From Candidatus Poribacteria bacterium (GTDB lineage Bacteria; Poribacteria; WGA-4E; PCPOR2b): a stretch of 64,000 nucleotides of DNA. Positions 2,990-35,399 of this stretch are shown here, in pieces (position 1 is the first letter of the stretch; every line of letters starts with the position of its first letter). The stretch covers positions 3,151,720 through 3,215,719 of the forward strand of contig OZ245030.1 of assembly GCA_965223985.1 (NCBI GenBank), in the 5' to 3' direction. A model generated the notes under the pieces. The model had not been told where the DNA came from. It saw nothing but the letters and a program-made list of their open reading frames with translations, and searched no databases. A program made the position numbers and the translations under genes.

Positions 2990-3058
2990 GGCGGTACCCT
3001 TCCATTCTCTTCGCAGATTATCACGACTGCGTTTGAACGGTTTCTACTAAGCTCACCG

Positions 3059-3691
3059 TTATAGCAGTTCTTTTATCTTCTGCTCCATTGGCACTTCGGC
3101 ACCGGGACCAAAGCCATTCTCACGATAGCGTACAATGCCCTCCTTGTCAATATAATAGGTGCAAGGGATACTTTGGACGCCGTATGCCTGAAATTGTGCG
3201 CCTCCGTTAAAGAGGAGCGTATACGCGATTGGCGACTGCTCCACAAAACTTTTCAACTTGGAGTCCGTCTCATCGCTCACACCAATGACTACTAGCCCTT
3301 GCTCGTTGTATTTCTGGTAAAGCCTGTTTAGGTGCGGAACCTCCACACGACATGAGCCTCACCAAGTCGCCCAGAAATTCAGGACCACTGGCTTGCCCTT
3401 GAAATCTGCTAGGCTCACCTGATTGCCGTTTAAATCCTGCAGTGTGAAGGATGGAGCGGGTTGATTGGCGAGCGAAGCTTTTACGGTTTGGGAACTTGAT
3501 GGCGGATTTTGTTGAGCGAGCTTGCCCTTAATTCTCTCATTTCTCCGCTGTTGTGCCTGTTCTAGGGCTTCGCAGCCGATGAGCGAGAATACAATTACGA
3601 ACAAGACAGATTCAAGCATCCAATTCTTGTGAGGCCAGTTTCGCTTTTTCACTGTTTCTTTCTCCTTTTGGGTAAGATTGTTACGCGGCAA
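3059..3691 (-). CDS. Putative selenoprotein: TlpA/ResA-like thiol:disulfide oxidoreductase with a UxxC active site (in-frame TGA at 3359-3361 read as Sec)
   Basis: Two ORFs in the same frame are separated only by TGA. Joined, they read ...[40 protein letters not shown]..., which matches the TlpA/redoxin core WATWCxPCRxE(M)PxL...Y...G(V/L)VV(L/I)GVS with TGA at the first Cys of CxxC. The N-terminus has a TM/lipoprotein-like segment. Confidence 0.55.
3320..3358 (-). promoter_or_regulatory. Candidate bacterial SECIS hairpin immediately 3' of the in-frame UGA
   Basis: On the mRNA: UGA ggcucauguc GUGUGG-AGGUU-CCGCAC. A 6-bp stem (one G-U pair) with a 5-nt apical loop containing GGU starts 10 nt after UGA, the position expected for SelB-dependent SECIS elements. 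Confidence 0.35.
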
Positions 3692-3996
3692 AATATTCCA
3701 ATTAGTCTTGAAAAAAAATTCAAGCGATTTAGGTCAATATCTTGGACGTTTCGGCTAAAAGACTGTTTAGTAATGAGATTATTTTTTTTCAAGGAGAATC
3801 TGTGCTAAAATAGTTGAGAATTGGTCTTTACAAAATTTTGCGTACCTTTTCCTGTTTACGATTCATCTTAAATGGAGGAAGAGGAAACGCCCACATTCAA
3901 GATAAAAAGCATTCCAAACTGTTGACATACATCATACATACGCTCATCAAATATCAGAGGTTCGCCGAATAAAACCGTTGAAAGAAGGTCAAGGAC

Positions 3997-5724
3997 ATGC
4001 GTGCACCAGCAACCATACCAATCACTGAAGGGGTTTATGAGATTCGGGTAGTTCCTGACACACTCGATTTGGCGCACCGAGCCGAACTCGCGCTTAACGC
4101 CATCACGCGCAGCGTCAATCCACGACGGAATTACGACACATATTTTCGTGGCAATATCATTGTGAACCCGCCGCGAATCAGCCACACATGGGAGTCGGCA
4201 CAAGGGAAACTCGCGGAGCCGCTCGTGCTGAACCGACTGATGACAGGCAATCTAGCCAACATGGATGTTGATGCGGCGTGGATCGAATGGCTTCACGCAC
4301 TTCGGGACGGTATTGAACATCTGCACCCGGTGTATATGGGTCGCAGTCTATGCGCTATTGCTCTCCATTACCGACTCACGGGTGATCCAGCATGGCTGGA
4401 GACTGGAAAGCGCGTTGTCGAACGGCTTGACGCGATTTGTCCTCGGATAGATGATTACGCTTATATCCCTGCGAAATACGACTTGAATTATCGTCCAGCG
4501 ACACAATCGGGGAGACGCCCGGACTACATGGGCGTTGAACAAGCGAAAGGCTGGTCCGCGCGACACAGTGTCTATCTGCTTCAAGGGCTGTGCGCCTTCG
4601 TCCGGGAGACGAGCGATGACTCCGCATCGCATCTTGCCGGACGGCTTGCCCGGTTCATACGGCACCATGCGGAGTATTTCGACGAAGATGGTCGATTTCT
4701 AGCGCGCCACGAGGGCTACTTGGGTCCAAAATCTGCCATCCATTTCTACTGCCACGCAAATGGACTGCTCGTTCTCTCCGAATACGCCCTCGTTTCGGGC
4801 GAGCGAGCGTTCGCAGAGTTCGCGCGCAAGGGCTACGAATATGCCAGGACACACGGTACCCCAGAGATTGGTTTCTTCCCGGAGTATCTTGTGTGGCCGC
4901 AAGACCGCGGCGGCGTCATCAACTGCGAGGCGTGCGACACGGCAGCTATGACGGGGACCGCGCTTAAGCTGACTGAGGCGGGAATCGGCGACTATTGGGA
5001 GCACGTAGATTGTTACGTGCGAAATATGCTTACCGAGTGCCAGTTGACGAGTTCCCGATGGATAGAGGAAGCACTGGAATCCGTTCCAAGGTCGCCGATT
5101 GACCCGGAGGTGGATGAGATACATGAGGTTCCCGAACGGCTCGTCGGCAATTTTGCGGCTTGGGCAAGCCCCAACGAGTTCCGCGTCTGGAATCCGGGCA
5201 TCACTCAGTGCTGCGTTGCAAATTCGTCGCGTGCCCTCTACTTCGTTTGGTGTCGTATGCTTCACGAGGAACCGAGCCGCGTCACGGTCGAGCTGCTGTT
5301 GAACCGGGCGTCCGACTCAGCGGATGTAGCGAGTGACCTTCCATACGCGGGCAGGGTCAGAATCTCCATCAAGAAGCAGGTAAGCGTCCGCGTTCGGCGA
5401 CCGTCGTGGCTAGATCCCGGAACGTTGACAATCACGTCCCGATTGTCTGGCGAAAAGGTGGCTTTCAATCATGACGGGCCGTATGTATCTATTCCAAAGC
5501 CGTCAGTGGGGGATGAACTTCAGTTGACCTTCGATTTGCCCGAGCGGACGGTGCCGATGCGGGTGGGGCACATGGACGCGACTGTGACCTTCCGGGGCAA
5601 CGAGGTTGTGGACTTCGACCCGCCCGGAAAGGTCGGGCCGATGTGGCAAGACAAGCCGGTTCAAAACGGTGTATCGGAAGTCGTCCGGACCTATTTCATT
5701 CCGAATAAAGTGGTCCGCTGGTAG
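3997..5724 (+). CDS. Hypothetical protein (575 aa), possibly alpha/alpha-toroid glycosidase-like
   Basis: Long ORF with coding-like composition and no recognisable catalytic motif. The toroid-like assignment is weak. Confidence 0.55.
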   Translation: MRAPATIPITEGVYEIRVVPDTLDLAHRAELALNAITRSVNPRRNYDTYFRGNIIVNPPRISHTWESAQGKLAEPLVLNRLMTGNLANMDVDAAWIEWLHALRDGIEHLHPVYMGRSLCAIALHYRLTGDPAWLETGKRVVERLDAICPRIDDYAYIPAKYDLNYRPATQSGRRPDYMGVEQAKGWSARHSVYLLQGLCAFVRETSDDSASHLAGRLARFIRHHAEYFDEDGRFLARHEGYLGPKSAIHFYCHANGLLVLSEYALVSGERAFAEFARKGYEYARTHGTPEIGFFPEYLVWPQDRGGVINCEACDTAAMTGTALKLTEAGIGDYWEHVDCYVRNMLTECQLTSSRWIEEALESVPRSPIDPEVDEIHEVPERLVGNFAAWASPNEFRVWNPGITQCCVANSSRALYFVWCRMLHEEPSRVTVELLLNRASDSADVASDLPYAGRVRISIKKQVSVRVRRPSWLDPGTLTITSRLSGEKVAFNHDGPYVSIPKPSVGDELQLTFDLPERTVPMRVGHMDATVTFRGNEVVDFDPPGKVGPMWQDKPVQNGVSEVVRTYFIPNKVVRW

Positions 5725-12536: not shown

Positions 12537-14879
12537 CTAAAGCAAAAACAGCGAAATTCCGATATTTGTTCGTTTTTCCGAGCCGCCGACGGGTTCAAGA
12601 AAGCTTTGAATTGCGTAGTCGGAAGCGATTAAGAGCCCCATCTTCTGTCCGAAGACATCTCCCTGCAGCACAAGCTCCAAGAATCCGACGGTGCGGTTAA
12701 AATTATTCTGAGAATCGTTGAGGTCGCGCCACGTGAGAAACTGCGCACCGGCGCTTAATTGCAATTGTGCCGCAACTTGATGGGTTAAGGTCAAGATGTA
12801 GGCATTTCGGATGAAATCGACCGTCGATAGTTTGTCAAACGGGACGGTGTAACTAATTGTCCGGTCGCTCCGGAAAGCGGGTGCGACCGTGAGATCGTCG
12901 CGCACTTTATAGTCGTATCGAATCTGGTTAATCAAGGCGGTATCAATAACGTGCTGCCGACTGTGAAACAGCGCGTCACGCTGATATTTGAATTTACTGA
13001 CGATTGTGAGATTTTCGATGTTCTGGTAATCCACAATCATCGTGAAGATATTGCTCAGATAATTTTGGAGCGCCAAATTGTCCTCAATCTGCTCGCCTGT
13101 GCTGCGAATGACAACGTCATCGGTAATAATGTCGCGCGAGCGACGAAGCGTATGTCGGAACTTGACCGTTCCGAAGTGACGAATCCGATTCGGCGTGTAT
13201 GCAACTATATTATACCATCCTCTTGCACTCTTATGTTCGAGAATCAGATGTTTCGCATAATATCCGGGGATAACAGATAAACTTTCGGTGAATGGCAGAT
13301 CTACCTTAAAATAGGTGTGATGTCCGTAAGAGCCTCTGTCATAATCGTAGCGGTAGTTGGGTTTGTCGTCGTCTTCGAGATTATCCGGCTCGCCGTTGTT
13401 ATTAAAATCGATGGATTCACGATTGAGCCCTAAGCGGAATCTCGGCGGGTCTGCAAAGAAGAGCAGAAAATCGTCATCCCAATCTTTAATGCGATCGCCG
13501 TCGAGATCGTCCTTTGTATTTCCTGAAATCAATATCTCAGGTTCGCGCGAATCTGCGAATGGGTTATCATCGTCGTTGTCGTCCACGAAGTTATCCGCCG
13601 TATAAAAGGGATTAATCCGTGTATATTCGCTGCGCCAAGTCAGTGGCCCAAAGTTTCGATTGACATCAATGAACCATGCGCCGGCTGTTCGCTGTGTGCT
13701 TTGCCCACTCAGAATCGGATACTGCTTCGTCTGTGAATACCATGCACGCTCCGCCTCAATGGAGAAACCGAACAGTGTTGTGTGGAGATCGAAACCCATT
13801 GTCGTTTCATCTGTCAATACCCCGTAGTAAAATCTGTGTACCTGACGGTTCGATTCGTCTTTGACGTTGCCTGGGGCGCTGAGTTCCAATTGAAAGTCGC
13901 GATTGTTCGGTGACAATTCAACGCGATAGTCGTTGGCAATATCGACCTCAAAGCGCACGTTGTTGATGTCCTGTGAGTTGAACAGGAGAAATCGATACGT
14001 GAATGTCCCTTCGCCATCCGCCCTGCGTGACTCATGATCCCGCCGGCTCTTATGAGGTAGGAGCAGAACGCCCGGCGGCTCTCGCCCGCCGACAATCTCA
14101 TGCTCTAGGGCGCCGTCAATGTAGACGCGCACATGGAAAACTTTCGCGCCGCCGGGGTTTTCGGGCGAAGCGTCACTGAAACGGAGAAACAGCTCCGGCG
14201 GCGGATTAGCGATGGTGACCCCTCGAAACGGGTTGGTTGTACGAGTGAGGTCGTAGTTGGTAAAAAACCGATTGACATAGTTGATTCCGAGGCGAGGCAG
14301 AGGTAACGTAAATTCTGGCAACGTCCCCAGTCGGACGCCATGCGCCCCGAGATTCGCCTCCGCTCGGAACCCTGCCATGAACCAATCGGCGGTACTCGTA
14401 ATATCAATGTTTTCGATTGGTGAGGTGCGCTCTCCCAATATCTCAAAGGTGTTGTTGGTCACCCGTCCGATAAACGCTGAAACTCCTCCGTGTGCTTTAG
14501 GAATGGATATATTCCAGCGTGCGGCGTCGAACAGTTCCTTATTCAACGTAAAGCTGGAAAATTTTGTCGGAAAATTGCCGACAGTCAACTGATGACGGAC
14601 GTTCTCGCTGGGGATGTTGAAAGTGAAAAAGTTTCGATTGCTTGTCTTTTTCCGAAATTCCGAATCACGGCGCAGCGTCGAATCGCCTCCTAATACGCCA
14701 AAGGTTGCCTGAATTCTATAGAGCTCTTTTCCGCTCTTATCAAAGACGGGATTGCCCAGCGGATCCACCCGTTGCGCAAGCGCCGAACCCAGAAAGCGGT
14801 CAGAGATTAACAGGTACAAAATCATCAGGTGTAATGCGCAATGGATTAAGCGTGAAGCGTGAAGCGTGAATGCTCTCAT
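12537..14879 (-). CDS. Hypothetical large outer-membrane/secreted protein (about 780 aa) with an acidic Asp-rich segment
   Basis: ATG at 14879 lies 14 nt after an AAGGAG RBS. Signal-like N-terminus MRAFTLHASRLIHCALHLMILYLLISDRFLGSALAQ. Asp-rich calcium-binding-like region (DDNDDDNPFAD...DDLDGDRIKDWDDD). Last gene of the T9SS-cargo / PorV-like cluster. Confidence 0.5.
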   Translation of the reverse strand: MRAFTLHASRLIHCALHLMILYLLISDRFLGSALAQRVDPLGNPVFDKSGKELYRIQATFGVLGGDSTLRRDSEFRKKTSNRNFFTFNIPSENVRHQLTVGNFPTKFSSFTLNKELFDAARWNISIPKAHGGVSAFIGRVTNNTFEILGERTSPIENIDITSTADWFMAGFRAEANLGAHGVRLGTLPEFTLPLPRLGINYVNRFFTNYDLTRTTNPFRGVTIANPPPELFLRFSDASPENPGGAKVFHVRVYIDGALEHEIVGGREPPGVLLLPHKSRRDHESRRADGEGTFTYRFLLFNSQDINNVRFEVDIANDYRVELSPNNRDFQLELSAPGNVKDESNRQVHRFYYGVLTDETTMGFDLHTTLFGFSIEAERAWYSQTKQYPILSGQSTQRTAGAWFIDVNRNFGPLTWRSEYTRINPFYTADNFVDDNDDDNPFADSREPEILISGNTKDDLDGDRIKDWDDDFLLFFADPPRFRLGLNRESIDFNNNGEPDNLEDDDKPNYRYDYDRGSYGHHTYFKVDLPFTESLSVIPGYYAKHLILEHKSARGWYNIVAYTPNRIRHFGTVKFRHTLRRSRDIITDDVVIRSTGEQIEDNLALQNYLSNIFTMIVDYQNIENLTIVSKFKYQRDALFHSRQHVIDTALINQIRYDYKVRDDLTVAPAFRSDRTISYTVPFDKLSTVDFIRNAYILTLTHQVAAQLQLSAGAQFLTWRDLNDSQNNFNRTVGFLELVLQGDVFGQKMGLLIASDYAIQSFLEPVGGSEKRTNIGISLFLL

Positions 14880-14948
14880 CCTTATTTTCCGCTCCTTCTT
14901 TATATGTCCCAACCACGCATTCCACCCGACGTCCACCGCTCGGTTATA

Positions 14949-15905
14949 TCATAAATCATACACGATGCTGACTCGATGGCTGCCGTAGGTGTCTACAATG
15001 CCACCGATCGGAAAAGCGGAGCCGTAATCCATTCGGACGCTATTGCTCAAGCGATATCCTCCGCCGAGTGTCAGATTTGTGCCCCATGCGAGATTTTCCA
15101 ACCGAAACCCGCCGCGCAGCAGTACCTTCCCATCATGAAATTGATGTTCAATCCCAATCTTGACATCAGTTTGGTTACCGATAAAAACGAGGTCCATCCC
15201 CCATGTAGACCGCTCCCCCAAAATGCCGATGCCGAGCGTCACCTGCAGCGGCAACTCCTCCGTTATCTTCGAGGATTTCGAAGCGATGTTGGGGGTATTG
15301 ATATTCTGGACCGACAGCGCGATCGGAATATTCGCAGACGGCCGAAAAACCACGCCAGCGTCTAGGCTAAACCGACTGGAACCTGGCAAGTCCTCTACAA
15401 TCCCACCGTCTGTCCCAATTGTGGGTGCTGTATCCCAATTCAGCAGCTTGAACCCCGTTCCGACTGACAAGCGGCGTTCCTCTTCAGTTCCAAATGCGAA
15501 CCCTTTGCTAAACCCAACGACCAAGTAATTCTCCGAATACAGTTGGCTGACGTTCAACCGCTTCCAGAGCAACCCGAGCGAGCTTCTGAGAGGACCTGGG
15601 TTGGTATAGCTAATCAGGTGCTGTGCGATTGAAGTCTCGTCGGTCAAGCCGAGGTGAAGTCTTGCCATTGTTGCGGACAACTGCCGCGGGGTCGAAAGAT
15701 TTGAGATTGACGCCGGATTAACGAGCAGACCGTCGGATTCATTCGCAATAGCTGCGAACGCGCCTCCCATAGCGTATGCACGTGCGCCTGCGAACTGATC
15801 GTCGAATGCCGCGTGCGTCCGAGGAGAAAAACTGACCGCCCCCAAGCCAAATAAGAAGAGTAGGAGTGTGAATGGGTGGGCTGGCGCGAAGGAGTCAGTC
15901 TTCAT
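14949..15905 (-). CDS. FadL-family outer-membrane beta-barrel protein, PorV/PorQ-like (T9SS-associated)
   Basis: Signal peptide, then the FadL/PorV N-terminal hatch motif GARAYAMGGAFAAIANESDGLLVNPA, then beta-rich alternating sequence. Its start overlaps the stop of the upstream CTD-cargo gene by 4 nt. Confidence 0.6.
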   Translation of the reverse strand: MKTDSFAPAHPFTLLLFLFGLGAVSFSPRTHAAFDDQFAGARAYAMGGAFAAIANESDGLLVNPASISNLSTPRQLSATMARLHLGLTDETSIAQHLISYTNPGPLRSSLGLLWKRLNVSQLYSENYLVVGFSKGFAFGTEEERRLSVGTGFKLLNWDTAPTIGTDGGIVEDLPGSSRFSLDAGVVFRPSANIPIALSVQNINTPNIASKSSKITEELPLQVTLGIGILGERSTWGMDLVFIGNQTDVKIGIEHQFHDGKVLLRGGFRLENLAWGTNLTLGGGYRLSNSVRMDYGSAFPIGGIVDTYGSHRVSIVYDL

Positions 15906-22048: not shown

Positions 22049-23995
22049 ATGAATCAAACGAGCCCCATTGAAAACCCCAAGCGAGGCGGTGTCCGCCTTA
22101 GAGTTGTTGTCATCGGTCTAATATTGATGGCGCTCAATGCCTATTGGGTCGCAATCAATGATATCATCGTGGGACCGTTGCACAACTACATGTCGCTGTT
22201 CAGCAACGCGGTCTTTACGCTGTTTGCTCTGATTCTGCTGAACCTGATTGTCAAGAGACTGCTGCCGCGCGCATCGCTCAACAGATCCGACCTGTTCGTT
22301 ATCTATGTCATGGTCGTCACGGTGACAACCGTATCGGGACATCCGAGCATGAGCCATGTGGTCGGAATTCTCGCGCACCCGTACTGGTTCGCCACGCCGG
22401 AGAATGACTGGCGAAATCTGTTCTGGGGATATATCCCCGACTGGTTCACCACCCGCGACACAAACGCGCTCAGCGGTTTTTTCCTCGGCGAGACCTCCTT
22501 CTTCAGCCCGCAGTACGTCATACCTTGGCTGGCGCCGATTCTCTATTGGTCCGCGTTTATGTTCGTGCTCTACTTCGTTCTCATCTGTATCAACGTTATT
22601 CTGAGAAAGCAGTTCACCGAGCACGAACGGCTCACCTACCCTATCACGTGGATGCCCCTAGAGATGGGGCGAGACATCTCCGGCTTCCTGAGGAACAGGT
22701 TAATGTGGGCGGGCTTTGGGATTGCGGCGGGCATCAGTCTGCTGAATGGCTTGCATACCTTATACCCTTTCGTCCCCGCTGTGCCCGTGTGGTGGCAACG
22801 GGTCAGCTTCGTGGAAAAACCGTGGAGCTACGCGGGCGGCGTGCTGGTCTCCTTCCAGCCGTTTGTGATTGGGCTCTCATTTTTCATGCCGTTGGATCTG
22901 GCGTTTTCCGCTTGGTTCTTCTACATGCTACAGCTTCTGATACGGATACTGCTGGGCGCGGGGATGGGTATACGCAACCCGTACTTCGATGAACAGGCAC
23001 AGGGGGGTTGGATCGGGTTGGGGATTCTTGCGCTCTGGGTCGGTCGCCGACATCTCAAGCGCGTGTTCGTCCACACGTTCAGCGGCAAGGGCGGAATTGA
23101 CGACACGAGCGAGCCGATGCGGTATCGGACCGCAATCTTGGGAATTGTCGCAGGGCTGCTGTTCTTGCTTGGGTTTGCGTACAAAGCCGGGCTTGATGCA
23201 TGGGTGCTGATCGTGTTCTTGGCGTTATACTGTGCGATTGCGATCGGGGTGGCAAAACTCAGGGCGAGCTTGGGGGTGTCGATCCATCACATCATCTGGG
23301 TAGACCCGCAACGCACGATGGTGACTGCCTTCGGAACACGCGCCTTCGGAGCGCGGAACCTGACGGTGCTGACCTTTCTTTTTTGGCTGAATCGAGAGTT
23401 GGTCGCGCATCCGATGCCGAACCAGCTCGAAGCCTTCCGAATCGCCGAACAGACGGGTACGAACTATCGAAGAGTGTTGTGGGCGATGCTGATAACGCTA
23501 ATCGTCGGGATACCGGTGACCTTTGTGATATACCTCAGCCTTACGTATCACCACGGAGCCGGTAATTCCGCGTCACACATCGTGGGGATGGGGACGGACT
23601 ACTTCACACGTCGTCTCCAACCGTGGTTGAGCAATCCGCTCGAACCGGATTACCTGACAATGAGCATGATTGGTCTCGGGTTTGGGATAATGACCGTTCT
23701 GCTAGTCATGAAGATGCGGTTTCTGTGGTGGCAATTCCATCCGGTGGGGTACGTCATGGGAATTAGCCCGTCGGAGATGAGTTATATCTGGTGCCCGATG
23801 CTTGTTAGTTGGTTTCTCAAGTTCATCGTCTTACGGTATGGCGGATTGAAGGGGTATCGACGCGCCATACCATTTTTTGCGGGCTTGGTGCTCGGAGATT
23901 ACACGATGGGCTGCATTTGGAGCATCATTAGTGCGACCTTCAACGTCGTCACGTATAACATGGGGTGGCACGGACGTCCTAACATGATTCCCTAA
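22049..23995 (+). CDS. Polytopic membrane protein of unknown function (about 13 TM; paralog 1 of 3)
   Basis: 648 aa, highly hydrophobic, with conserved blocks NAYWVAINDIIVGPLHNYMSLFSNAVFTLF, HPYWFATPENDWRNLFW and ERLTYPITWMPLEM shared with ORFs at 60913 and 63626. Confidence 0.75.
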   Translation: MNQTSPIENPKRGGVRLRVVVIGLILMALNAYWVAINDIIVGPLHNYMSLFSNAVFTLFALILLNLIVKRLLPRASLNRSDLFVIYVMVVTVTTVSGHPSMSHVVGILAHPYWFATPENDWRNLFWGYIPDWFTTRDTNALSGFFLGETSFFSPQYVIPWLAPILYWSAFMFVLYFVLICINVILRKQFTEHERLTYPITWMPLEMGRDISGFLRNRLMWAGFGIAAGISLLNGLHTLYPFVPAVPVWWQRVSFVEKPWSYAGGVLVSFQPFVIGLSFFMPLDLAFSAWFFYMLQLLIRILLGAGMGIRNPYFDEQAQGGWIGLGILALWVGRRHLKRVFVHTFSGKGGIDDTSEPMRYRTAILGIVAGLLFLLGFAYKAGLDAWVLIVFLALYCAIAIGVAKLRASLGVSIHHIIWVDPQRTMVTAFGTRAFGARNLTVLTFLFWLNRELVAHPMPNQLEAFRIAEQTGTNYRRVLWAMLITLIVGIPVTFVIYLSLTYHHGAGNSASHIVGMGTDYFTRRLQPWLSNPLEPDYLTMSMIGLGFGIMTVLLVMKMRFLWWQFHPVGYVMGISPSEMSYIWCPMLVSWFLKFIVLRYGGLKGYRRAIPFFAGLVLGDYTMGCIWSIISATFNVVTYNMGWHGRPNMIP

Positions 23996-24252: not shown

Positions 24253-24951
24253 ATGGGGCATAAGCTCTCTATTGTGATTCCCGTTTATAATGAGGTCGGC
24301 ACGCTGGAAGAGATTCTCAGGCAGGTCCAAGCGGTAGAGATTGGGATTGAAAAAGAGATTGTCTTAGTGGACGATTGCTCAACTGATGGAGCGCGTGAGC
24401 TTCTCCAGCGGATTGAAGCGTCCGGCGACGCATCCATCCGTGTCTTCTACCACGACGTGAATCGCGGCAAAGGGGCAGCGCTGCGAACCGGGTTTCAGCA
24501 TGTGGACGGCGATATGACCCTCGTTCAGGATTCCGATCTGGAGTATGATCCGCGTGACTATCCCAAATTGATCGGTCCGATTCTGAGCGGCGCGGCGGAC
24601 GCGGTTTACGGCTCGCGCTTCAAAACGGGACGGGGTGATGCGCTGCTGTCGAGTTACGCCGCCAATCGGTTTCTGACCTCGTTCTCCAATCTGGTCACCG
24701 GCTTGAACCTGACGGATATTGAGACCTGCTATAAGGTGATAAAAACTTCGATTCTGCGGGAGATTCCGCTGCGGTCGGATCGATTCGGATTCGAGCCGGA
24801 GATTACCGCGAAGCTCGCCAAGCGGAAGTGCCGAATCTGCGAGGTGCCGATAACCTATCGCGGACGCGACTACCACGAGGGCAAGAAAGTGGGTTGGAAG
24901 GACGGGCTTGCCGCGATGTGTCATATTGTCCGTTTTCGATTCATGGACTGA
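24253..24951 (+). CDS. Family 2 glycosyltransferase (polyprenyl-phosphate sugar transferase-like)
   Basis: LSIVIPVYNEVGTLEEIL...VLVDDCSTDG...DLEYDP motifs of GT2 (DXD-type). The ORF track starts at a TTG at 24226. Confidence 0.8.
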   Translation: MGHKLSIVIPVYNEVGTLEEILRQVQAVEIGIEKEIVLVDDCSTDGARELLQRIEASGDASIRVFYHDVNRGKGAALRTGFQHVDGDMTLVQDSDLEYDPRDYPKLIGPILSGAADAVYGSRFKTGRGDALLSSYAANRFLTSFSNLVTGLNLTDIETCYKVIKTSILREIPLRSDRFGFEPEITAKLAKRKCRICEVPITYRGRDYHEGKKVGWKDGLAAMCHIVRFRFMD

Positions 24952-25027
24952 TGCGGCGCGGAATATCCCCGCCGCACGGAGTGCGCTAGCTGCTCCGACC
25001 GCTAGCCGGTTGCAATACGGCGTGATT

Positions 25028-26809
<1,782 letters not shown>

Positions 26810-27776: not shown

Positions 27777-27848
27777 CTCAACCCAACCTACGTTGCTGCC
27801 CACCGTTTTTGTGGATGATTTTTCCGGTCTTATGCTACAATTTTGTAT

Positions 27849-28199
27849 ATGGGTTTACAACAGATAAAAATATATCGTACGCCGGAAAATCGTGAGCCCT
27901 TTACGGATTGGTTAAAGTCAATACGAAATCAGGAAACACGAAAACGAATTCTAGTCCGACTTGATCGGCTTCGGCATAGTAATTTTGGCGATTGCAAATC
28001 CGTTGGAGATAATGTCTTTGAACTCCGTCTCCAATTTGGTTCTGGTTATCGTATCTACTTTGGAAGAATAGCAGAAAACATTGTACTGTTACTATGCGGT
28101 GGTGACAAATCCTCGCAGAATAAAGACATTGAAAGTGCAAAATCCTATTGGCAAGAATACAAGGAGGCGAACCATGAGACAATTTCGGGATTATCATGA
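27849..28199 (+). CDS. Type II toxin, RelE/ParE superfamily (HigB-like addiction-module killer protein)
   Basis: Matches the killer-protein family pattern ...FTDWL...RIL.RLDRL...GDCKSVGDNVFELRLQFGSGYRIYFGR..NIVLLLCGGDKSSQNKDIESAK. Overlaps the downstream antidote gene. Confidence 0.7.
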   Translation: MGLQQIKIYRTPENREPFTDWLKSIRNQETRKRILVRLDRLRHSNFGDCKSVGDNVFELRLQFGSGYRIYFGRIAENIVLLLCGGDKSSQNKDIESAKSYWQEYKEANHETISGLS

Positions 28200-28422
28200 T
28201 TACCTCATTGAAGAGGAATTGTCAAATCCGAAGGAGGCATTGCTTTATCTCGAAGTCGCGTTTGAAGAATACCTTAAGGATGGTGACGCCACAGCGTTTA
28301 TGTTAGCACTTCGCAACATTGATGAAGCACAAGGCACCAACCTAAGCAACACTTTGAAGCTATCCGCGAAAGAGCCCCGTAAAATTGCGAAGCTGTTTCA
28401 ACGTGCAGCTTCCCCGCTCTAG
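28174..28422 (+). CDS. Type II antitoxin (HigA-like addiction-module antidote protein)
   Basis: ATG at 28174 lies 6 nt after an AAGGAGG RBS and overlaps the toxin's 3' end. LSNPKEALLYLEVAFEEYLKDGDATAFMLALRNIDEAQG matches the antidote family consensus. Confidence 0.6.
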   Translation: MRQFRDYHDYLIEEELSNPKEALLYLEVAFEEYLKDGDATAFMLALRNIDEAQGTNLSNTLKLSAKEPRKIAKLFQRAASPL

Positions 28423-28430
28423 ATCTAGTT

Positions 28431-28505
28431 TTCGTAGGTTGGGTTTCGGAGAAAACTATCGCCCTCGTTATTCACTCGGTTGATCTCTACCCAACCTACA
28501 AGAGC
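28431..28505. repeat. REP-like element cluster (GTAGGTTGGGT / ACTATCGCC...GTTGATC family)
   Basis: ttcgtaggttgggtttcg...aaactatcgccctcgttattcactcggttgatctctacccaacctacaag; the same words recur more than 50 times in the window. Confidence 0.6.
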
Positions 28506-28510
28506 TACGT

Positions 28511-29023
28511 TCAGAGCCGCCCGAACGGGAATGTGCCGGGCATTACATCTAAGCCTCGGTAGTGATTCGGTTTAATCATCGACGGGAGTCTCAGGTCCGG
28601 CAATTTAATCTCGGTGAGCCGATGGTTCTGTTCGGGTGTGAGCGCCGCTTTAATTTCATTGAGGAGCACGCCAATCTCCTTGAGATAGCCGTTGCGTTGT
28701 GTAATGAACTCCCTAATCTTTGTTCTGAGCGTGTTTCGTGCGCGCGCCGACTGTCGAGACATTCTCCGATTACCTTCGTACGGGCTCAATTGGTCCATCC
28801 GTGCTTCGCTGCGATAGCCCTGGTAGTGCGACTCTAGCACATCCTTGTCAAATTCGTAGTCTTCGACGATGTCCCGAATGATGGAGATTTTGGAGGTAAT
28901 CGTCTCCTGCTGTTCCGGAGAGAGGTTCAACGCGGCTGTGGATGTCGGGATGTCGATTAACTTTACCCCGCCGCAGGCGGAGGTTAATGCGACGTAGAAG
29001 AGGATGATGATGATCCGTATCAT
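28511..29023 (-). CDS. Hypothetical secreted/lipoprotein (170 aa)
   Basis: Signal peptide with a possible lipobox (MIRIIIILFYVALTSACGG); basic, helical protein with no recognised domain. Confidence 0.5.
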   Translation of the reverse strand: MIRIIIILFYVALTSACGGVKLIDIPTSTAALNLSPEQQETITSKISIIRDIVEDYEFDKDVLESHYQGYRSEARMDQLSPYEGNRRMSRQSARARNTLRTKIREFITQRNGYLKEIGVLLNEIKAALTPEQNHRLTEIKLPDLRLPSMIKPNHYRGLDVMPGTFPFGRL

Positions 29024-29434
29024 ATTCTTTCCTTAGTTGTTGAAAGAGACCTACACAAAACGTCGCTTGACCGCCGCTGTTGTGCTGGTGTTCGGCATTT
29101 TTTTGATTGCCAATTTTTAATTATTCCTTGCGGTTCGATTAGGTGAATTGGTTAAATAACGTTATTTGCCGTAGACCCGACTGCGCCGTTGTTGCAGGCT
29201 ACACTTACGGATAAACCCGCACAATCTGAATGAAGTTTCAATAAATATTCCGGTAATTCTACGAAAGATACGGTTCATTCAAGAAATCCATAATCAGCGA
29301 AATCTGTGTAATCCATATAATCCGTGATTCAGACAATTTCGCAGAAACCCGCATTCTGCGCAAGCCTATAGAGGCTTGCGGGACAATGCGAAGCAAACGG
29401 ACGCAGCAGCCCAAGCTTACATAATTAAAAAACC

Positions 29435-30409
29435 TCAACCGAAGGAGACACCTAATTTGACGCTCCGTTCAGGATGATTGTCCATCTCTATATAGGCTTC
29501 GACTGAATCTTCAAACGGCACCACCGGATCAACGACACCTTCACAATCAAATCTACCTTCAACAAGCCACTTCCAGCAGGTATCAACGATACGTCCGAAA
29601 TGCCAGCGCGGATGATCGCGGTTCGGATCGCTGTTGGCACGGGCAAAGATGATGTTCGGGATGTTGACATGCGCGACAGCACCGAGGTCAAGCCCGCCCG
29701 TACACGCTTTTGCGCGTCCAGCGTAGACGATTGTTCCTTCAAAAGCGACACTGCGAATTGCATCATCAAGGGCTTCGTACACTGCACTTGTTTCTACAGC
29801 CACATCAACGCCAAGCCCGCCAGTCGCTTCTTTGAGCACCTCGCCGGTATTAGAGGCAGTGGGATCGATAACAAGCTCCGCCCCCGTTTTTTCAGCGACC
29901 TTCCGCCGTCTTTCGAGCGGGTCTACGGCAGCGACGAAGTCAGCCCCTGCGATCCGTGCCATTTGCACCGTCATCAACCCAATGGCACCAAGCCCAAAGA
30001 CAGCCACCCGCTCACCAACGCGTACCTTTCCATCGCGAATTGCGGACATTGCAAAGTGGGCTGGATCATAGCAGACCGCTTCCTTCCACGTCATACTCTC
30101 AGGCATCCTGAGGACACCAGCCGCACGCCATGTATGCGTCTCCTTGAGGTGCCCGTGACTGGCGACGCGTTCCCCAATCGCGAAACCCTCAACCTCTTCC
30201 CCGATTTCAATAACTTTTCCGACGCACATATTTCCAAGTCCCATCGGAAAAGTTTCGCCGTCATATCCGTAATACGCTGTCAGTTCTGTACCACGCTTGG
30301 GCGCGCCGAATTCGACTTGAACCCGGACACTATCCGCGGGGACGGGACCATCTGCGTACTCTCTCAAGACGGGCTGCCGAAGGGCAACCGCGACCAATTC
30401 TCTTGGCAT
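29435..30409 (-). CDS. Zinc-binding medium-chain dehydrogenase/reductase (alcohol dehydrogenase family)
   Basis: GroES-like N-domain with GLGNMCVGKVIEIGEEV and the Rossmann motif VAVFGLGAIGLMTVQMARIAGA. Confidence 0.8.
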   Translation of the reverse strand: MPRELVAVALRQPVLREYADGPVPADSVRVQVEFGAPKRGTELTAYYGYDGETFPMGLGNMCVGKVIEIGEEVEGFAIGERVASHGHLKETHTWRAAGVLRMPESMTWKEAVCYDPAHFAMSAIRDGKVRVGERVAVFGLGAIGLMTVQMARIAGADFVAAVDPLERRRKVAEKTGAELVIDPTASNTGEVLKEATGGLGVDVAVETSAVYEALDDAIRSVAFEGTIVYAGRAKACTGGLDLGAVAHVNIPNIIFARANSDPNRDHPRWHFGRIVDTCWKWLVEGRFDCEGVVDPVVPFEDSVEAYIEMDNHPERSVKLGVSFG

Positions 30410-30430
30410 CTTTTTCTCCTTAAAGTAGTA

Positions 30431-30512
30431 GGTATACTACAAAAGCTACAGAAGACTATCGCCTTCGCTATCCGCTCAGTTGATCGCTCAGTTGATCGGT
30501 CGCTTGATTCCT
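30431..30512. repeat. REP-like element cluster
   Basis: aagactatcgccttcgctatccgctcagttgatcgctcagttgatcggtcgcttgattcctcgctatc. Confidence 0.55.
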
Positions 30513-30514
30513 CG

Positions 30515-31318
30515 CTATCTTTTAGCTTTGAGGTTGCCCCACGTGGTGGTGAGTTTTCCGTGCGGTTGAACGGCGAGAAATCCTCTCAAACCGCCGTCGA
30601 AGTGGGCTTCAACCTCCTCTTCGCTCAAGGCGCGCTTAACGATGAGGACTTCGTCGATCATACCGTTGAAAAAGAAGGGACCTTCTGACCAGCCGATGTT
30701 TAGCGCGTGGTCAATCTCTTCAGGGATGTTTACCTTGTCATCAACATCTCCGAACGGCTTACCGTCCAGATAATAGGTGTATTTTCTGCCTTCCTTAACA
30801 AGAAGCATCTGATACCACTGCTTCAAATCCGGATCCCACGGGTCGGAGTCGATCCAAGCGACGCCTGCGCCGCCGGCGGTATTGATGTGGAAGTCGATCC
30901 CGTTGCCGGAGTACCACCAAATCCATTTGTTTGTGGGACCGCCGCCCTCATCGTGTCCGAGCAGGGTAAAGCCCGAAGAACCACGGTTCCCCTTCGGCGG
31001 ATCTTCTTCGAAGTAAAGCCATAGTCCGATGGTGAAGTCGGTTTTGTGCAGGCTGAGGCTGTCGTCTTTCTCAATTTCGACTTGGTTCGTTCCATCGAGC
31101 CGAACCGCTTGCCCGAATTTTCCCTTTTCTCGTTTCGCCTTCTGTTCCAGTATGCCGTCGTTACCGTGCGGGGACACGTCCTTGGCGACTAGCCCCTTTT
31201 CTTCGTCAAACGAGATGGCGAGTACGACATCCTTGTCCACTTCGAGCGCCGCCGTATCTCGAAGTGCGAACGCGAGCGTCAAAGCGAAGATTAATGCGAT
31301 GGAAATCGTGTATTTCAT
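30515..31318 (-). CDS. Secreted LamG/concanavalin-like domain protein (paralog 3 of 3)
   Basis: ATG at 31318 with an AGGAG RBS and signal peptide MKYTISIALIFALTLAFALRDTAA. Body has VVLAISFDEEKG...IDEVLIVKRALSEEEVEAH. C-terminal tail KLTTTWGNLKAKR is shared with the 7440 and 8237 paralogs. Confidence 0.7.
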   Translation of the reverse strand: MKYTISIALIFALTLAFALRDTAALEVDKDVVLAISFDEEKGLVAKDVSPHGNDGILEQKAKREKGKFGQAVRLDGTNQVEIEKDDSLSLHKTDFTIGLWLYFEEDPPKGNRGSSGFTLLGHDEGGGPTNKWIWWYSGNGIDFHINTAGGAGVAWIDSDPWDPDLKQWYQMLLVKEGRKYTYYLDGKPFGDVDDKVNIPEEIDHALNIGWSEGPFFFNGMIDEVLIVKRALSEEEVEAHFDGGLRGFLAVQPHGKLTTTWGNLKAKR

Positions 31319-31339
31319 TTTTGTTCTCCTTTTTGGGTT

Positions 31340-31460
31340 TTGAGTTTCAGCCACATTATTATATACGATCAACTGAGCGGATAGCGAAGGCGATAGGTCT
31401 TGTAGGTTGGGTTTCGCTGATGGATTAACCCAACCCACATTCCGCATTACCCATTATACC
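31340..31460. repeat. REP-like element cluster abutting a truncated gene
   Basis: gatcaactgagcggatagcgaaggcgataggtcttgtaggttgggtttcgctgatggattaacccaacccacat. Confidence 0.55.
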
Positions 31461-31931
31461 TCATATATGTTGTATAGGGATACCGATTTTTGCGACAGTT
31501 GCGCCGGTGGCGACCATTGGGTATCCGGGGAAGCATCGGTTCATTTTCATCTGATCGACGGGGCTACAGGCTTGTTTCGCGTGGAATGCGTGGAAGTTGA
31601 CAATCGGGACCGCGATGATTCGACCGTTTAGTGAATCCGGGGAAATTTGGCGCAGCAATTCGTGGACAACGGCGATACCGTTGAGTTCGTCGCCGTCGCT
31701 TATTGATTGTAGGTATAGCGTACGTTTTCCACAGGTTCCGTTGATTAGCACGACGGGCAAACGCACGGGCGTCCCGTCGGGCATGGATCCGACGGTAATG
31801 TAGTCCTCAACCCGTTTTCCGGGTTTTGCGACGAGTGATCCAACGGTGAGGCTGTTGTTATTTATCCACATTTTATCCACATTTATTTGTACGTTAGGGT
31901 TTGTGTCACGGTATGGTTGTATTTGTGGCAT
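31461..31931 (-). pseudogene. Truncated succinylglutamate desuccinylase/aspartoacylase (AstE/AspA) family gene (N-terminal ~155 aa only)
   Basis: Contains the family motifs (...VVLINGTCGKRTLYL..., ...NRCFPG...), but the ORF stops after about half the normal length, exactly where the REP cluster at 31340-31460 begins. Confidence 0.45.
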
Positions 31932-32094
31932 TTTAAACGTCCGGGAAACGGACCGGTGAATGCCAACGCTAAGGACGATTGGAACAAGAAAAGCCGAATG
32001 CGCTATTCGGAAATTGGAGCGGAGTATTGTGTTTGGTTATGTGTTTGGTTGCCGGAGGTTTCAAAAGCGTTGGGTTTCGCTATCTCCAGCGAGT

Positions 32095-32300
32095 GTCGCA
32101 CGCAGTAAACCTACAAAGCGATTCGTTATAATGCACATGTTTCGGCATACCCGCTCTACCCAACCTACAAAGACTACAAAGACTACAAAGACTATCGCAG
32201 TCGCTATTCGCTCCTTTGATCCCTACCCAACCTACAAAGACTATCGCACTCACTATTCGTTCGCTTGATCGCTCAGTTGATCTACCCAACCTACGAAAGC
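32095..32300. repeat. REP-like cluster with a tacaaagac microsatellite
   Basis: ctacccaacctacaaagactacaaagactacaaagactatcgcagtcgctattcgctcctttgatccctacccaacctacaaagactatcgcactcactattcgttcgcttgatcgctcagttgatctacccaacctacg. Confidence 0.6.
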
Positions 32301-32974
32301 TACGAAATACGGGCGACCACGACCGCGACGGGTCCTTGTTGCCAGACGCATTCGGCGTCGAACCCTGCGGCGCGGGCGGCTTCGAGTTCCTCCTCAAGCG
32401 GGAAATACGTGTCTTCCTCCGCCCATTGCGTGAAATATTCCCGTGCACGCGGTTCATCAATTCCACGCGCGACCATATGATCAATCCAGTTTCGCCACGT
32501 TGCCTCGCGTTCAGGGGGCGCCGCTGGCATCGTTGCGTCCGCATTGACGAAGGCGCCGCCAGATCGGAGCGCGTCGTAAATCCGCCGGTAGAGTGCGCGT
32601 TTCGCATCCATTGTCGGTACATGGTGAAGCGCTAATGACGCCGCGACAGCTTTGCACGGCGGCAGCGGCATGTTGAACGACGATTCGGTGAAGCGAACCC
32701 GTCCGTCAAACCGCTCGAGCCGCGTTCGTGCTTGTACTAGCATCTCGGGGTCGATGTCGATGAGTTCCACAGTTCCAGAACCGTCCGCCGAGAGAATCGC
32801 CTCGGAGAGCGCGCCGGTACCCCCGCCGAGGTCGAGGGTCAAGCCCGGCGTTGTGCGGGCAATTTCGCGCGCAGCGACAGCTAGCATCGTCTCGTAGCCC
32901 GGAATGAAGCGGCGAATCGTTTCGTCGTAAGTGCGGATTTCAATGCCGAGGTGACGGTGTACGGAGTGGTTCAT
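32300..32974 (-). CDS. Class I SAM-dependent methyltransferase
   Basis: Motif I LDLGGGTGALSEAIL and downstream acidic motifs. The ATG at 32974 (MNHSVHRHLG...) was chosen because the ORF track's longer ORF reads through from the upstream RAYT remnant. Confidence 0.65.
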   Translation of the reverse strand: MNHSVHRHLGIEIRTYDETIRRFIPGYETMLAVAAREIARTTPGLTLDLGGGTGALSEAILSADGSGTVELIDIDPEMLVQARTRLERFDGRVRFTESSFNMPLPPCKAVAASLALHHVPTMDAKRALYRRIYDALRSGGAFVNADATMPAAPPEREATWRNWIDHMVARGIDEPRAREYFTQWAEEDTYFPLEEELEAARAAGFDAECVWQQGPVAVVVARIS

Positions 32975-33300
32975 GATTATTCGTTGCCGATTTCGGTGGA
33001 AGCTGGAGTGTTCCCAGAATCTGCGTTGCCAGAATGCGCGCTCCTGTTTGGTTTTGCGTGATGTTGCAGCGGCACGTTCAAATGTGGTTTGGCAATTACG
33101 GGTGAAGTAGCTTTTGATTTGCCGCCATCGGGTTGAGAAGTCGTGGTCGTCGTCGGGCAGTAGGACGAAGGCATCGACCTCCATTTTGGACGGCGTTCCA
33201 TCGTGGAGCGGAGTGCTTGGCGTAGGAGTTTCACGTTTTCCGGTTGGCAGAGAAAAGGTTTGCGGTCATGGGTCACGACGGTGAAGAAGTAGGTTGCGCC
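32975..33300 (-). pseudogene. Decayed REP-associated tyrosine transposase (RAYT) copy
   Basis: Near-identical at DNA level to the intact RAYT at 34857-35399, but with a frameshift after ...LRQALRSTMER and a 30-bp deletion that removes the HLHTIWTLPD (HxH) motif. Its reading frame runs directly into the methyltransferase ORF. Confidence 0.7.
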
Positions 33301-33334
33301 ATTGATTTTTGGCGCGGCGGTAGTGCATGGAGGT

Positions 33335-33400
33335 CGCACCATATATATACTGTATGTTTTTCGTTTGTTAGGTTGGGTTAAGATCAACCCAACCTACAAA
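33335..33400. repeat. REP-like elements
   Basis: ttaggttgggttaagatcaacccaacctacaaaacttc. Confidence 0.5.
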
Positions 33401-33404
33401 ACTT

Positions 33405-33686
33405 CTATCTCCGTTTGTTCGATCTCGTGATGGTTACAACGACTGCCGTATCCTTCCGGCGTTCGGCTTCCTGACAACTGATGAACCTACCTGTTTTTGC
33501 ATCGCGCCCGACCTTAATGGTAGTTTCACCATGTTTCCGCCCCGCCTCGCCACCACCGTGCTTGCGAAAAACGACCTTTTCTACAGCCTGTTGAACTTGT
33601 CTTTTTGTGAGCTTCCCACGTTTGGGCGGGTACTTAACGATTCTTTCTCTAGCCACTCTAATCACCTCCCTAGGACCGTGTTTCAA
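33405..33686 (-). CDS. Hypothetical small basic protein (93 aa), second gene of a REP-flanked two-gene cassette
   Basis: Starts 1 nt after the stop of the 208-aa ORF on the same strand. Lys/Arg/Gly-rich (KHGGGEAGRKHGETTIKVGRDAKTGRFIS); no confident family assignment. Confidence 0.5.
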   Translation of the reverse strand: MKHGPREVIRVARERIVKYPPKRGKLTKRQVQQAVEKVVFRKHGGGEAGRKHGETTIKVGRDAKTGRFISCQEAERRKDTAVVVTITRSNKRR

Positions 33687-34313
33687 TCAGCGGCTCGCAT
33701 AAGTCGTCAACCATTCCGCTAGCAAGCAAGTATAATCAAATAAAATCAGCTCTTCAACCGTTAATTGATTCACCTCAGCCAGCTGAGGCAAATCCCTCCT
33801 AAATTCTTGGTAACGTTCCCAAATGATGCTTCCACTTGGAATTTTCTTACGTCTTGATGCGGTGCTCAGCCAATTTCGTACAACTGTTACAACTTCTTCG
33901 GGATTGTTGTTATGAGCCTGAATATCTTGCCCTGCAATATCCGAAATAAATTGTTGATACCGATACCGTTCTTTATCCAGTATGAGACAATTTTTCCTTT
34001 TTTGTTCCTTCAGACCAAATTTCTTTGCGCCAATAAAAACCCCCAATTCCAAAGGCATATTGAATCGAGGAAAACGTGAAGTCTCGTCTAATTCCGTTCG
34101 CGATATATCGTGAATCCCATAACGACAAGCTGCAACAATGTTATAGATTTTATCAATCCGAACTTGGCTGGCGTCTTCTTCTTCGAGGGCACAACGGGCA
34201 ATAAATCCGCAATCGTGTACAGCAAAAACCATTGCATCAAACAAAGGTTTATAGGGCACATCAATGGGACAATTTAGAAAAACATTGTGATTATAGCTTT
34301 TGGGTGAACTCAT
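33687..34313 (-). CDS. Hypothetical protein (208 aa) with a Rossmann-like (possibly TIR/SLOG-like) N-terminal region, first gene of the REP-flanked cassette
   Basis: N-terminal pattern NVFLNCPIDVPYKPLFDAMVFAVHDCGFIARCALEEE...GIHDISRTELDE...MPLELGVFIGA resembles alpha/beta nucleotide-processing folds; the assignment is weak. Confidence 0.55.
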   Translation of the reverse strand: MSSPKSYNHNVFLNCPIDVPYKPLFDAMVFAVHDCGFIARCALEEEDASQVRIDKIYNIVAACRYGIHDISRTELDETSRFPRFNMPLELGVFIGAKKFGLKEQKRKNCLILDKERYRYQQFISDIAGQDIQAHNNNPEEVVTVVRNWLSTASRRKKIPSGSIIWERYQEFRRDLPQLAEVNQLTVEELILFDYTCLLAEWLTTYASR

Positions 34314-34339
34314 GATTTGCTATGTCTGTGTGTTTAAAC

Positions 34340-34800
34340 CCATCTTGCTCCCCCCTTTTTTAAGGCGGGACTGAGGGGGTAGTAGCGTGTGTCGCGATTC
34401 GGAGCAAGTTTTTGTAGGTTGGGTAGAGTCAACGGCGAAACCCAACGTTTTTGAAACGTCCGTTCAGCCGACCGGTTAACGGCAACACGAGAACGATGGG
34501 AACGACAAAAAGGAACAAAAGGCAATGACACTATACGGGATTTGTATGATTGTGTGGAAACGCGACGCGTTTTGGTGTTCGGGAGGTTTCAAAAACGTTG
34601 GGTTTCGCTCTGTCGAACAATTCTCGCACACAATTAACGAACAGACCGATTCGTTATAATGCACATGTTTCGGCATACCCACTCTACACCAACCTACAAG
34701 AACTACAAAGACTATCGCCTTCGCTATTCGCTCCTTTGATCCTAACCCAACCTACAAGAACTGTTTGTTTGATGCCTTCAGCGCAATACGATAAGCATTA
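34340..34800. repeat. Hairpin repeat plus MITE-like and REP-like elements
   Basis: gggactgagggggt hairpin relative; then cgaaacccaacgtttttgaaacgtccg...ccgggaggtttcaaaaacgttgggtttcgct inverted termini and ctacaccaacctacaagaactacaaagactatcgccttcgctattcgctcctttgatc. Confidence 0.6.
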
Positions 34801-34856
34801 TGCGCGGAATATTATGCCATATTTTAAGGACATATACCAACGAAAACCACAAAGAG

Positions 34857-35399
34857 TTATTCTTTGCCGATGTCGGGGTTGATGGGGATTCCTGCGCCTG
34901 TGCTCCAGTTCGCGTCGTATACGCCGGCTTGGACGTAGCGGTGGAAGCTGGAGTGTTCCCAATCCTTTGGGGCGGTAACTAAGCCGTGCTTGACGGGATT
35001 ATAGTGGATGTATTCAACGTGGTTGATATAGTCTTGAGTGTCTTTGACCGTGTGTTCCCAGAATCTGCGTTGCCAGAATGCGCGCTCGTTTTTGGTTTTG
35101 CGCGATGTTGAAGTAGCACGTTCAAATGTGGTTTGGCAGTGACGGGTGAAGTAGCTTTTGATTTGCCGCCATCGGGTTGAGAAGTCGTGGTCGTCGTCGG
35201 GCAGCGTCCAGATGGTGTGGAGGTGGTCGGGTAGCAGGACGAAGGCATCAATCTCGATCGGATGGCGTTCCATCGTGGAGCGGAGCGCTTGGCGTAGGAG
35301 TTTTACGTTTTCCGGTTGGCAGAGAAAAGGTTTGCGGTCATGGGTCACGACCGTGAAGAAGTAGGTTGCGCCATTGATTTTTGCACGGCGGTAGTTCAT
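34857..35399 (-). mobile_element. Intact REP-associated tyrosine transposase (RAYT; IS200/TnpA_REP-like), 180 aa
   Basis: MNYRRAKINGATYFFTVVTHDRKPFL..., the HxH motif LLPDHLHTIW and catalytic Tyr region YINHVEYIHYNPVKHGL. The gene is surrounded by REP sequences. Confidence 0.85.

Follow-up and report, generated by a model that had tools for sequence, protein, structure and literature searches.

The 64,000-nucleotide window considered here, meaning the whole stretch of DNA that was analysed, comes from a Candidatus Poribacteria assembly (GCA_965223985.1, contig OZ245030.1, positions 3,151,720 to 3,215,719 of the forward strand) and contains, close to its beginning, a gene for a putative redoxin whose reading frame is interrupted by a single TGA. 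A mechanical list of open reading frames (ORFs) represents this gene by two minus-strand entries of one frame, 3359-3691 (110 amino acids) and 3059-3346 (95 amino acids), and the first-pass annotation of the window, made from the sequence alone, had described them as adjacent ORFs split by one TGA. This description proved accurate, with an upstream part running from 3691 or 3652 to 3359, a downstream part from 3346 to 3059, and the TGA at 3361-3359; the minus strand around the site reads AAT TTC TGG GCG ACT TGG TGA GGC TCA TGT CGT GTG GAG GTT CCG CAC. It is almost certain that the two short ORFs form a single gene, the product of which would be a thiol-disulfide reductase, predicted to be membrane-anchored, with selenocysteine (Sec) in place of the first active-site Cys. 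The features of the locus are as follows, with SECIS standing for selenocysteine insertion sequence.

3059..3652, minus strand: complete redoxin gene of 197 codons plus TAA, for a predicted TlpA/ResA-like thiol-disulfide oxidoreductase with the proposed Sec at codon 98
3662..3667, minus strand: AAGGAG, a Shine-Dalgarno-like sequence 9 nt upstream of the GTG start codon at 3652-3650
3572..3652, minus strand: predicted lipoprotein signal peptide with a basic N-region (KKR..K), the hydrophobic core SVLFVIVFS and the lipobox L-I-G-C, Cys27 being encoded at 3574-3572
3359..3361, minus strand: in-frame TGA, codon 98, the proposed Sec codon at the N-terminal nucleophile position of the CxxC motif (W-U-G-S-C)
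3350..3352, minus strand: TGT for Cys101, the resolving Cys of the UxxC motif, located past the TGA and ahead of the first codon at which translation could restart
3332..3348, minus strand: candidate apical SECIS hairpin, consisting of GUGUGGA (3348-3342), the loop GGU (3341-3339) and UCCGCAC (3338-3332)
3317..3362, minus strand: extended SECIS region with a lower stem (GUGAGG../..CUUUAC) that includes the UGA and is conserved less well than the apical helix
3164..3166, minus strand: CCT for Pro163 in SIPCTYYID, aligned with the PLPTSFLID loop of ResA (4nmu)

The GTG at 3652 is more likely to be the start codon than the TTG at 3691, because it is preceded by the AAGGAG sequence 9 nt upstream and because the orthologs have ATG or GTG at the same codon. 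A lipobox is found in all five full-length orthologs, as well as in the retrieved stretch of contig L027 (LIGC) and in the short homolog of contig L032 (YIGC), and the product is predicted to be an exported, probably lipid-anchored protein. The public gene calls inspected either cut the redoxin gene into two fragments of about 95-110 amino acids or remove the redoxin domain from a larger protein, and such split calls were found even on long, closed-looking Candidatus Poribacteria contigs.

When the joined protein was searched with Cys substituted for the stop, its best Pfam match was AhpC-TSA (PF00578, E = 1.1e-32, residues 63-176), which covers the join as one domain, and Redoxin (PF08534) was likewise matched across the join (E = 2.4e-27). 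The alignment with TlpA/ResA across the join that had been put forward from the sequence alone was recovered with the solved structure of ResA (4nmu, E = 9e-28), in which the first Cys of WCKPC stands opposite the TGA, at the very position of the redoxin CxxC motif to which the stop codon had been assigned. The residues W97-U98-G-S-C101, E104, and P163 are aligned with WCKPC, the Glu located three residues past the second Cys, and the PLP loop of ResA, respectively, and the loop around Pro163 is presumably the cis-proline loop of the thioredoxin fold. The best NCBIfam relatives are ResA, DsbE, and TlpA, all of which score under their equivalog cut-offs (107.7/170 for ResA NF002854, 72.3/123 for DsbE TIGR00385, and 66.7/230 for TlpA NF047696), and as judged from these values the redoxin is a family-level relative and not an equivalog of any named enzyme. 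None of the curated NCBIfam selenoprotein models attains its cut-off on the redoxin protein. A CxxC motif occupies the Sec site in 118 of the 120 best database homologs, and the other two are gene calls ending at that codon. These truncated calls (P0038 and P0039, about 80% identical) end precisely at ...NFWTTW, and their source contigs L001 and L002 carry a TGA at the identical codon, behind which the frame runs on.

A conserved in-frame UGA stands at the catalytic position. TGA occupies exactly the position of codon 98 in 14 assemblies with 12 distinct SECIS-region sequences (the window, L023, L024, L001, L002, L027, L003, L004, L017, L028, L029, L030, L031, and L032), and neither TAA nor TAG is used at this site in any recovered assembly. 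L023, which lies on a contig of 4.72 Mb (ENA ERZ26167216, ctg495889), and L024 are independent assemblies of the same species from other samples; both have the identical TGA and agree with the window at about 99% identity. L001, L002, and L027 show amino acid identities of 80-84%. A scan of species-representative genomes added two complete Candidatus Poribacteria chromosomes from the sister species, OZ242351.1 (L003) and OZ242326.1 (L004), which keep the TGA at 75% amino acid identity and are fully syntenic with the window in the neighbourhood of the gene, comprising sigma-70, NifU, orf286, the redoxin, orf575, GFO/IDH, glyoxalase, two LamG genes, LipA, and SPFH. More distant forms (L017 and L028-L032) are about 50-66% identical over the C-terminal part and have other domain architectures. 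A metagenome scan with the joined protein returned six loci only, one of them useful (L017, TGA present), and a protein search with the 95-residue C-terminal ORF gave 17 short fragment calls; in each of the six contigs retrieved from the latter search (6/6), the first Cys of W-U-G-[S/P/A]-C is replaced by TGA. In L028 (46-1647) and L031 (1-1731), the Sec-form redoxin is preceded by LamG, cohesin, and CarboxypepD_reg domains, and a LamG-fusion form lies on ERZ26167216 ctg495935 (6.29 Mb); HEAT and TPR repeats precede a C-terminal Sec-form redoxin with TGA and hairpin in L017 (2-1873), TPR-like sequence is present in the short stretch recovered of L029 (3-772), again with the Sec-form redoxin at the C-terminus, and L032 is a short lipoprotein Sec-form. 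The Sec form thereby spans four architectures, namely lipoprotein, short lipoprotein, LamG/cohesin fusion, and HEAT/TPR fusion, and the called genes of L028, L029, and L031 stop at the TGA and lose the remainder of the redoxin domain. Two outcomes that had been named beforehand as fatal to a Sec reading did not materialise: the homologs are not naturally split or truncated at this position, as the recovered relatives with a stop all have TGA, the same frame onward, and the hairpin, and a sequencing error is excluded by the TGA in the window, L023, L024, and 11 more diverged contigs. In a neighbour-joining tree without bootstrap, the five lipoprotein Sec-forms constitute one clade nested among Cys-form Poribacteria-type redoxins, and the latter appear to be positional relatives, because a homolog of orf286 adjoins the redoxin gene in the Cys-form genomes as well.

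The frame downstream of the TGA is under selection. The five lipoprotein-type orthologs are each exactly 594 nt long and collinear, without indels or further stops, and differ mostly at third codon positions, the synonymous divergence (dS) among them reaching values of 0.8-1.0. The ratio of nonsynonymous to synonymous divergence (dN/dS) in this set is 0.12-0.32 downstream of the TGA, compared with 0.09-0.32 upstream of it. Synonymous changes in the Gly (GGC/GGT/GGG) and Cys (TGT/TGC) codons occur even within the four codons that separate the TGA from the next potential start, and the orthologs have UGPC or UGAC besides UGSC. As judged from these substitution patterns, the downstream half is translated in the same frame as the upstream half.

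The hairpin behind the TGA had been described as a 6-bp stem with an AGGUU loop starting 10 nt downstream; it is present as described and, if the closing A-U pair is counted, becomes a 7-bp stem with a GGU loop, beginning 10 nt after the UGA at a UGA-to-loop spacing of 17 nt. Its calculated folding energy is -9.1 kcal/mol alone, and that of its 65-nt context is -22.4 kcal/mol (z = -2.7). Bacterial SECIS elements have been defined by a loop of 3-9 nt, an upper stem of 4-16 bp, a spacing of 16-37 nt, and a minimum free energy not above -7.5 kcal/mol, together with a G in the first two loop positions according to the pattern N1-G[G/U]-N-N2 (PMC13188914, Fig. 2). The candidate agrees with this published model in all four respects, and A-GGU-U fits the loop pattern. 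The hairpin is conserved, being kept in 12 of the 12 distinct Sec-forms with 98.8% of the cells of the apical helix paired, and RNAalifold yields the same apical helix independently; the lower helix is 86.5% paired in the 12 sequences and shifts its register in some of them. If the partner columns of the apical helix are slid by 1-3 positions, pairing falls to 33-58%. One apical pair is U-A in five, C-G in four, and U-G in three of the Sec-forms, with C-A in none, another shows a single change from G-C to G-U, and the resulting covariation score of the 12 Sec-forms was attained by 5 of 500 shuffles. The hairpin is also specific to those forms that have UGA, as the homologous 19 nt fold with 0 to -4.8 kcal/mol in seven Poribacteria genes of the Cys form, in which the hairpin is absent or weak. 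It is made of codons for the conserved peptide R-V-E-V-P-H, which the Cys-forms encode also, and one of these (L006) encodes the identical RVEVPH peptide yet folds weakly. Finally, third positions vary in 6 of 19 codons in the SECIS zone, as against 70 of 119 elsewhere (Fisher p = 0.045).

Taken together, the comparative data on the TGA, the frame, and the hairpin support the interpretation as a Sec-containing UxxC redoxin that was offered from the single sequence, and codon 98 is very probably a UGA recoded as Sec. During translation, the hairpin located 10 nt past the UGA would act as a bacterial SECIS and recruit the complex of SelB, GTP, and Sec-tRNA(Sec), so that UGA codon 98 would be decoded as Sec instead of a stop. 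The full-length protein would then be exported and may reduce disulfides of extracytoplasmic client proteins via a selenenylsulfide intermediate of U98 with Cys101. In this scheme, we infer the dependence on SelB, the insertion of selenium, the export and lipidation of the product, and the identity of the client proteins.

Several observations weigh against this interpretation. About 7% of the TGA triplets in the window have behind them an uninterrupted stem of 7 bp or more that agrees loosely with the SECIS geometry, and a hairpin in a single sequence is weak evidence by itself for that reason. Covariation calculated with the first five sequences was not significant, as 178 of 500 shuffles attained the score, and improved only after more diverged Sec-forms had been added via the C-terminal fragment search; even then it comes essentially from a single pair of the apical helix, in sequences that are related to one another. 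Since the kinship of sequences inflates such statistics, we regard the covariation as supportive, not conclusive. An Rfam scan of positions 3000-3750 with E-values up to 10 gave two chance-level unrelated matches and no match to an independent model, and such a missing family match is expected. As regards the machinery, a Pfam search of about 38 ORFs, confined to the 64-kb window, found no SelA, SelB, or SelD, and ARAGORN found no tRNA gene at all in the window, hence no tRNA-Sec there; a tRNA scan of the related loci detected tRNA-Met and tRNA-Leu only. Nor is a second selenoprotein gene evident in the window, either by joining frames separated by TGA or by extending ORFs past TGA. The Sec trait exists in the phylum, as the COG counts for bin44, bin70, and Ca. 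Poribacteria WGA-3G are 4, 2, and 2 for SelA, 1 each for SelB, and 2, 1, and 1 for SelD (PMC5649159 Table S4), and Sec-containing group 4 hydrogenases have been reported from Poribacteria (PMC13582414). The support from this machinery for the present organism is indirect.

Decoding of the conserved UGA and SECIS by some non-canonical route, for example as Cys by an allo-tRNA of the tRNA-ReC type, or in a milder variant a repeated switching from Cys to Sec via a "pre-adapted" SECIS, appears very improbable. In one version of such a route, which we consider very improbable as well, the same SECIS and SelB would be used, with Cys being inserted by a tRNA-ReC (SelC*) type allo-tRNA to give an ordinary CxxC protein. 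The conserved UGA, the SECIS, and the downstream selection fit this reading equally well, and tRNA-ReC is described as decoding UGA as Cys given a downstream SECIS and as occurring in about 13-17% of surveyed genomes (PMC13582414). In that survey, it was enriched among genomes of the UXXU type and had a low frequency of about 2.3% among the other genomes of the Sec type (PMC13582414). The window holds no tRNA-ReC, nor any other tRNA, whereas canonical SelA, SelB, and SelD are present in surveyed Poribacteria genomes (PMC5649159). Moreover, keeping a costly UGA plus SECIS over a dS of about 1 for the sake of Cys would bring no obvious gain over the TGC or TGT of the sister clades. By comparison, a genuine stop at the TGA followed by a restart at the in-frame GTG four codons on (3346-3344), with the GAGG overlapping the TGA as ribosome-binding site, would lead to two polypeptides that either assemble as a split redoxin or are non-functional. 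The sequence U-GAGG-CUCAUGUC-GUG does place a Shine-Dalgarno-like GAGG 8 nt ahead of the GTG, and gene callers give exactly these two ORFs in the inspected public records. Such a restart, however, leaves G-S/P/A-C-R untranslated, yet the resolving Cys in this segment is invariant with TGT/TGC changes and the Gly shows GGC/GGT/GGG changes. We know of no function for a redoxin devoid of both active-site residues, which counts against a restart. In L028 and L032, the first called start past the TGA is an ATG further on (MPHL... and MNSE..., respectively) and the stop is still TGA, and the called start of L031 lies likewise further downstream (MVIGIN...) with the stop still TGA at the same codon. 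A plain stop would also be unexpected to appear always as TGA and never as TAA or TAG in the recovered assemblies, and with the conservation of the TGA and the selection downstream of it, a stop with restart is very unlikely.

On the same two lines of evidence, the gene is neither the product of a sequencing error nor a pseudogene in decay. A single base change turns TGC or TGT into TGA, and the window sequence taken alone is compatible with an error in sequencing or assembly or with a nonsense mutation, but the same TGA recurs in 14 assemblies, which are independent of one another and differ in sample and sequencing platform, and the downstream dN/dS of 0.12-0.32 at a dS of up to about 1, without indels or extra stops in the five collinear orthologs, is at odds with both. 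This explanation is effectively refuted by the comparative data and must be rated as extremely unlikely. The least probable of all, to a degree that makes it almost negligible, is an altered genetic code with TGA as a sense codon for Trp or Gly, in favour of which there is the in-frame TGA itself and no further support. That TGA is a genuine stop in this genome had been concluded from recQ (24908-26809), and the conclusion extends to other genes, as 18 of 47 other long ORFs, recQ included, end at TGA; in-frame TGA is absent from the ORFs of 2402 and 3033 codons, which use TGG 15 and 19 times, respectively, and the redoxin is the sole frame in the window that is interrupted by TGA at a redox motif. 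The TGA usage in the window thus effectively refutes an altered code.

A comparison of the Sec-containing redoxin with known selenoproteins shows that Sec-containing UxxC redoxins of the TlpA-like and Prx-like types have been catalogued since 2004-2005, and the present gene is a new, unannotated example. The first prediction of a TlpA-like UxxC selenoprotein dates from the study of the Sargasso Sea selenoproteome (PMC1088965, Tables 1-3), and the family is contained in a 2026 review (PMC13188914, Table 1). The Sargasso Sea study also names a "Prx-like protein" and a "thiol-disulfide isomerase-like protein" (PMC1088965), the Global Ocean Sampling (GOS) study lists "Prx-like 1" (pfam00578, UxxC) with 225 sequences (PMC2398784, Table 2), and the name "Prx-like thiol:disulfide oxidoreductase" is used in PMC13188914. 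Compared by description, the published TlpA-like UxxC family shares with the present protein the thioredoxin-fold redoxin domain, Sec as first residue of UxxC, widespread Cys homologs, and its identification by Cys/TGA pairing plus SECIS; the differences are that the present clade belongs to Candidatus Poribacteria, has a lipoprotein signal, and includes relatives fused to LamG/cohesin or HEAT/TPR domains. The present clade is described in none of the three papers in which Poribacteria and selenocysteine are both mentioned. With the Prx-like selenoprotein (PF00578, UxxC), the protein has in common that PF00578 AhpC-TSA is also its own best Pfam match, whereas by NCBIfam and PDB matches it is nearest to reductases of the ResA/TlpA/DsbE type.

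As regards the ResA of Bacillus and the TlpA of Bradyrhizobium, which are represented by the PDB matches 4nmu, 1st9, and 1jfu (E-values from 9e-28 to 7e-13), the likeness extends to the fold, the W-C/U-x-x-C motif, the Glu, the cis-Pro loop, and a membrane or periplasmic location, which is predicted for the present protein. The latter differs from them in having Sec instead of Cys as the nucleophile and in scoring under the equivalog cut-offs, and no cytochrome c maturation or Sco genes lie beside the redoxin gene in the window. Two further selenoprotein families were considered and rejected. The "ResA-like WAxxUGC motif-containing protein" (NF041054) resembles the redoxin in its ResA-like fold and the sequence W-A-x-x-U, and the match is a weak one of 62 bits; this is far under the 300-bit cut-off, the motif is U-G-S-C and not U-G-C, and the protein has 197 residues compared to 354 model positions. 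Membership was rejected because of the score and the differing motif. The "UGSC-containing protein" (NF041046; PMC2398784) has the literal U-G-S-C and a probable thioredoxin-like fold in common with the redoxin, and was rejected as it is absent from the 20 NCBIfam matches at E <= 1e-3, the likeness being one of motif only.

The finding corrects an annotation error, as the gene stands as two fragments in the inspected public records. The predicted selenoproteins of Poribacteria, a mostly uncultured phylum, are extended by a thiol-disulfide reductase of probable extracytoplasmic location. The 12 aligned bacterial SECIS elements in a conserved coding segment, together with matched Cys-form controls, could be used to train or test selenoprotein predictors. 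Existing knowledge on selenocysteine biology itself is unchanged by the redoxin.

The redoxin gene is monocistronic, lying convergent with orf286 (2129-2989) and divergent from orf575 (3997-5724), and a promoter and terminator scan around it found no terminator-like site and promoter-like matches at background level. Orf286 has a weak discoidin-like match and orf575 a weak GH127-like match, and neither of them points to cytochrome maturation or to copper chaperones. Because the gene stands alone and its neighbours have weak matches only, the client proteins of the redoxin are not inferable from the context. Within orf286, a 555-bp segment (2245-2799) is present in the window and absent from L023 and L024, the assemblies of about 99% identity, where orf286 is a short remnant, and L026 carries at least part of this segment; from these alignments, 2245-2799 is read as an indel at the level of strains, located in a gene for a predicted discoidin-like lipoprotein. 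The orf286 homolog that adjoins the Cys-form redoxin in L005, L008, L009, and L011 (about 8.6-9.6 kb) shows about 48% identity, and the adjacency in these Cys-form genomes is tandem, not convergent, with no evident functional link.

Some observations concern the rest of the window. At 12537-15905 on the minus strand, ORFs of 318 and 799 amino acids lie in one frame with a single TGA between them (...VSIVYDL-stop-YNRAVD...) and without any Pfam match; this pair (14949-15905 and 12537-14936), the only other case in the window of two long frames that can be joined across a TGA, is read as two adjacent predicted genes, because a redox motif is lacking and the TGA is soon followed by a start codon. 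The region at about 27800-38500 contains many short ORFs without family matches, besides a Gp49/HigB-like toxin gene (27843-28199), a truncated AstE/AspA-like fragment (31461-31931), and an IS200-type Y1 transposase (34857-35399), and may represent a mobile or degraded island. The adjacent giant ORFs of 2402 and 3033 amino acids (38894-46102 and 46470-55571) contain Ig-like, PKD, and invasin domains and C-terminal Por_Secre_tail/FlgD_ig sorting domains, and probably encode secreted surface proteins. The DUF6785/DUF6784 family is represented by three copies in the window, at 22049-23995, 60913-62847, and 63626-64000, the last of which is cut by the window end.

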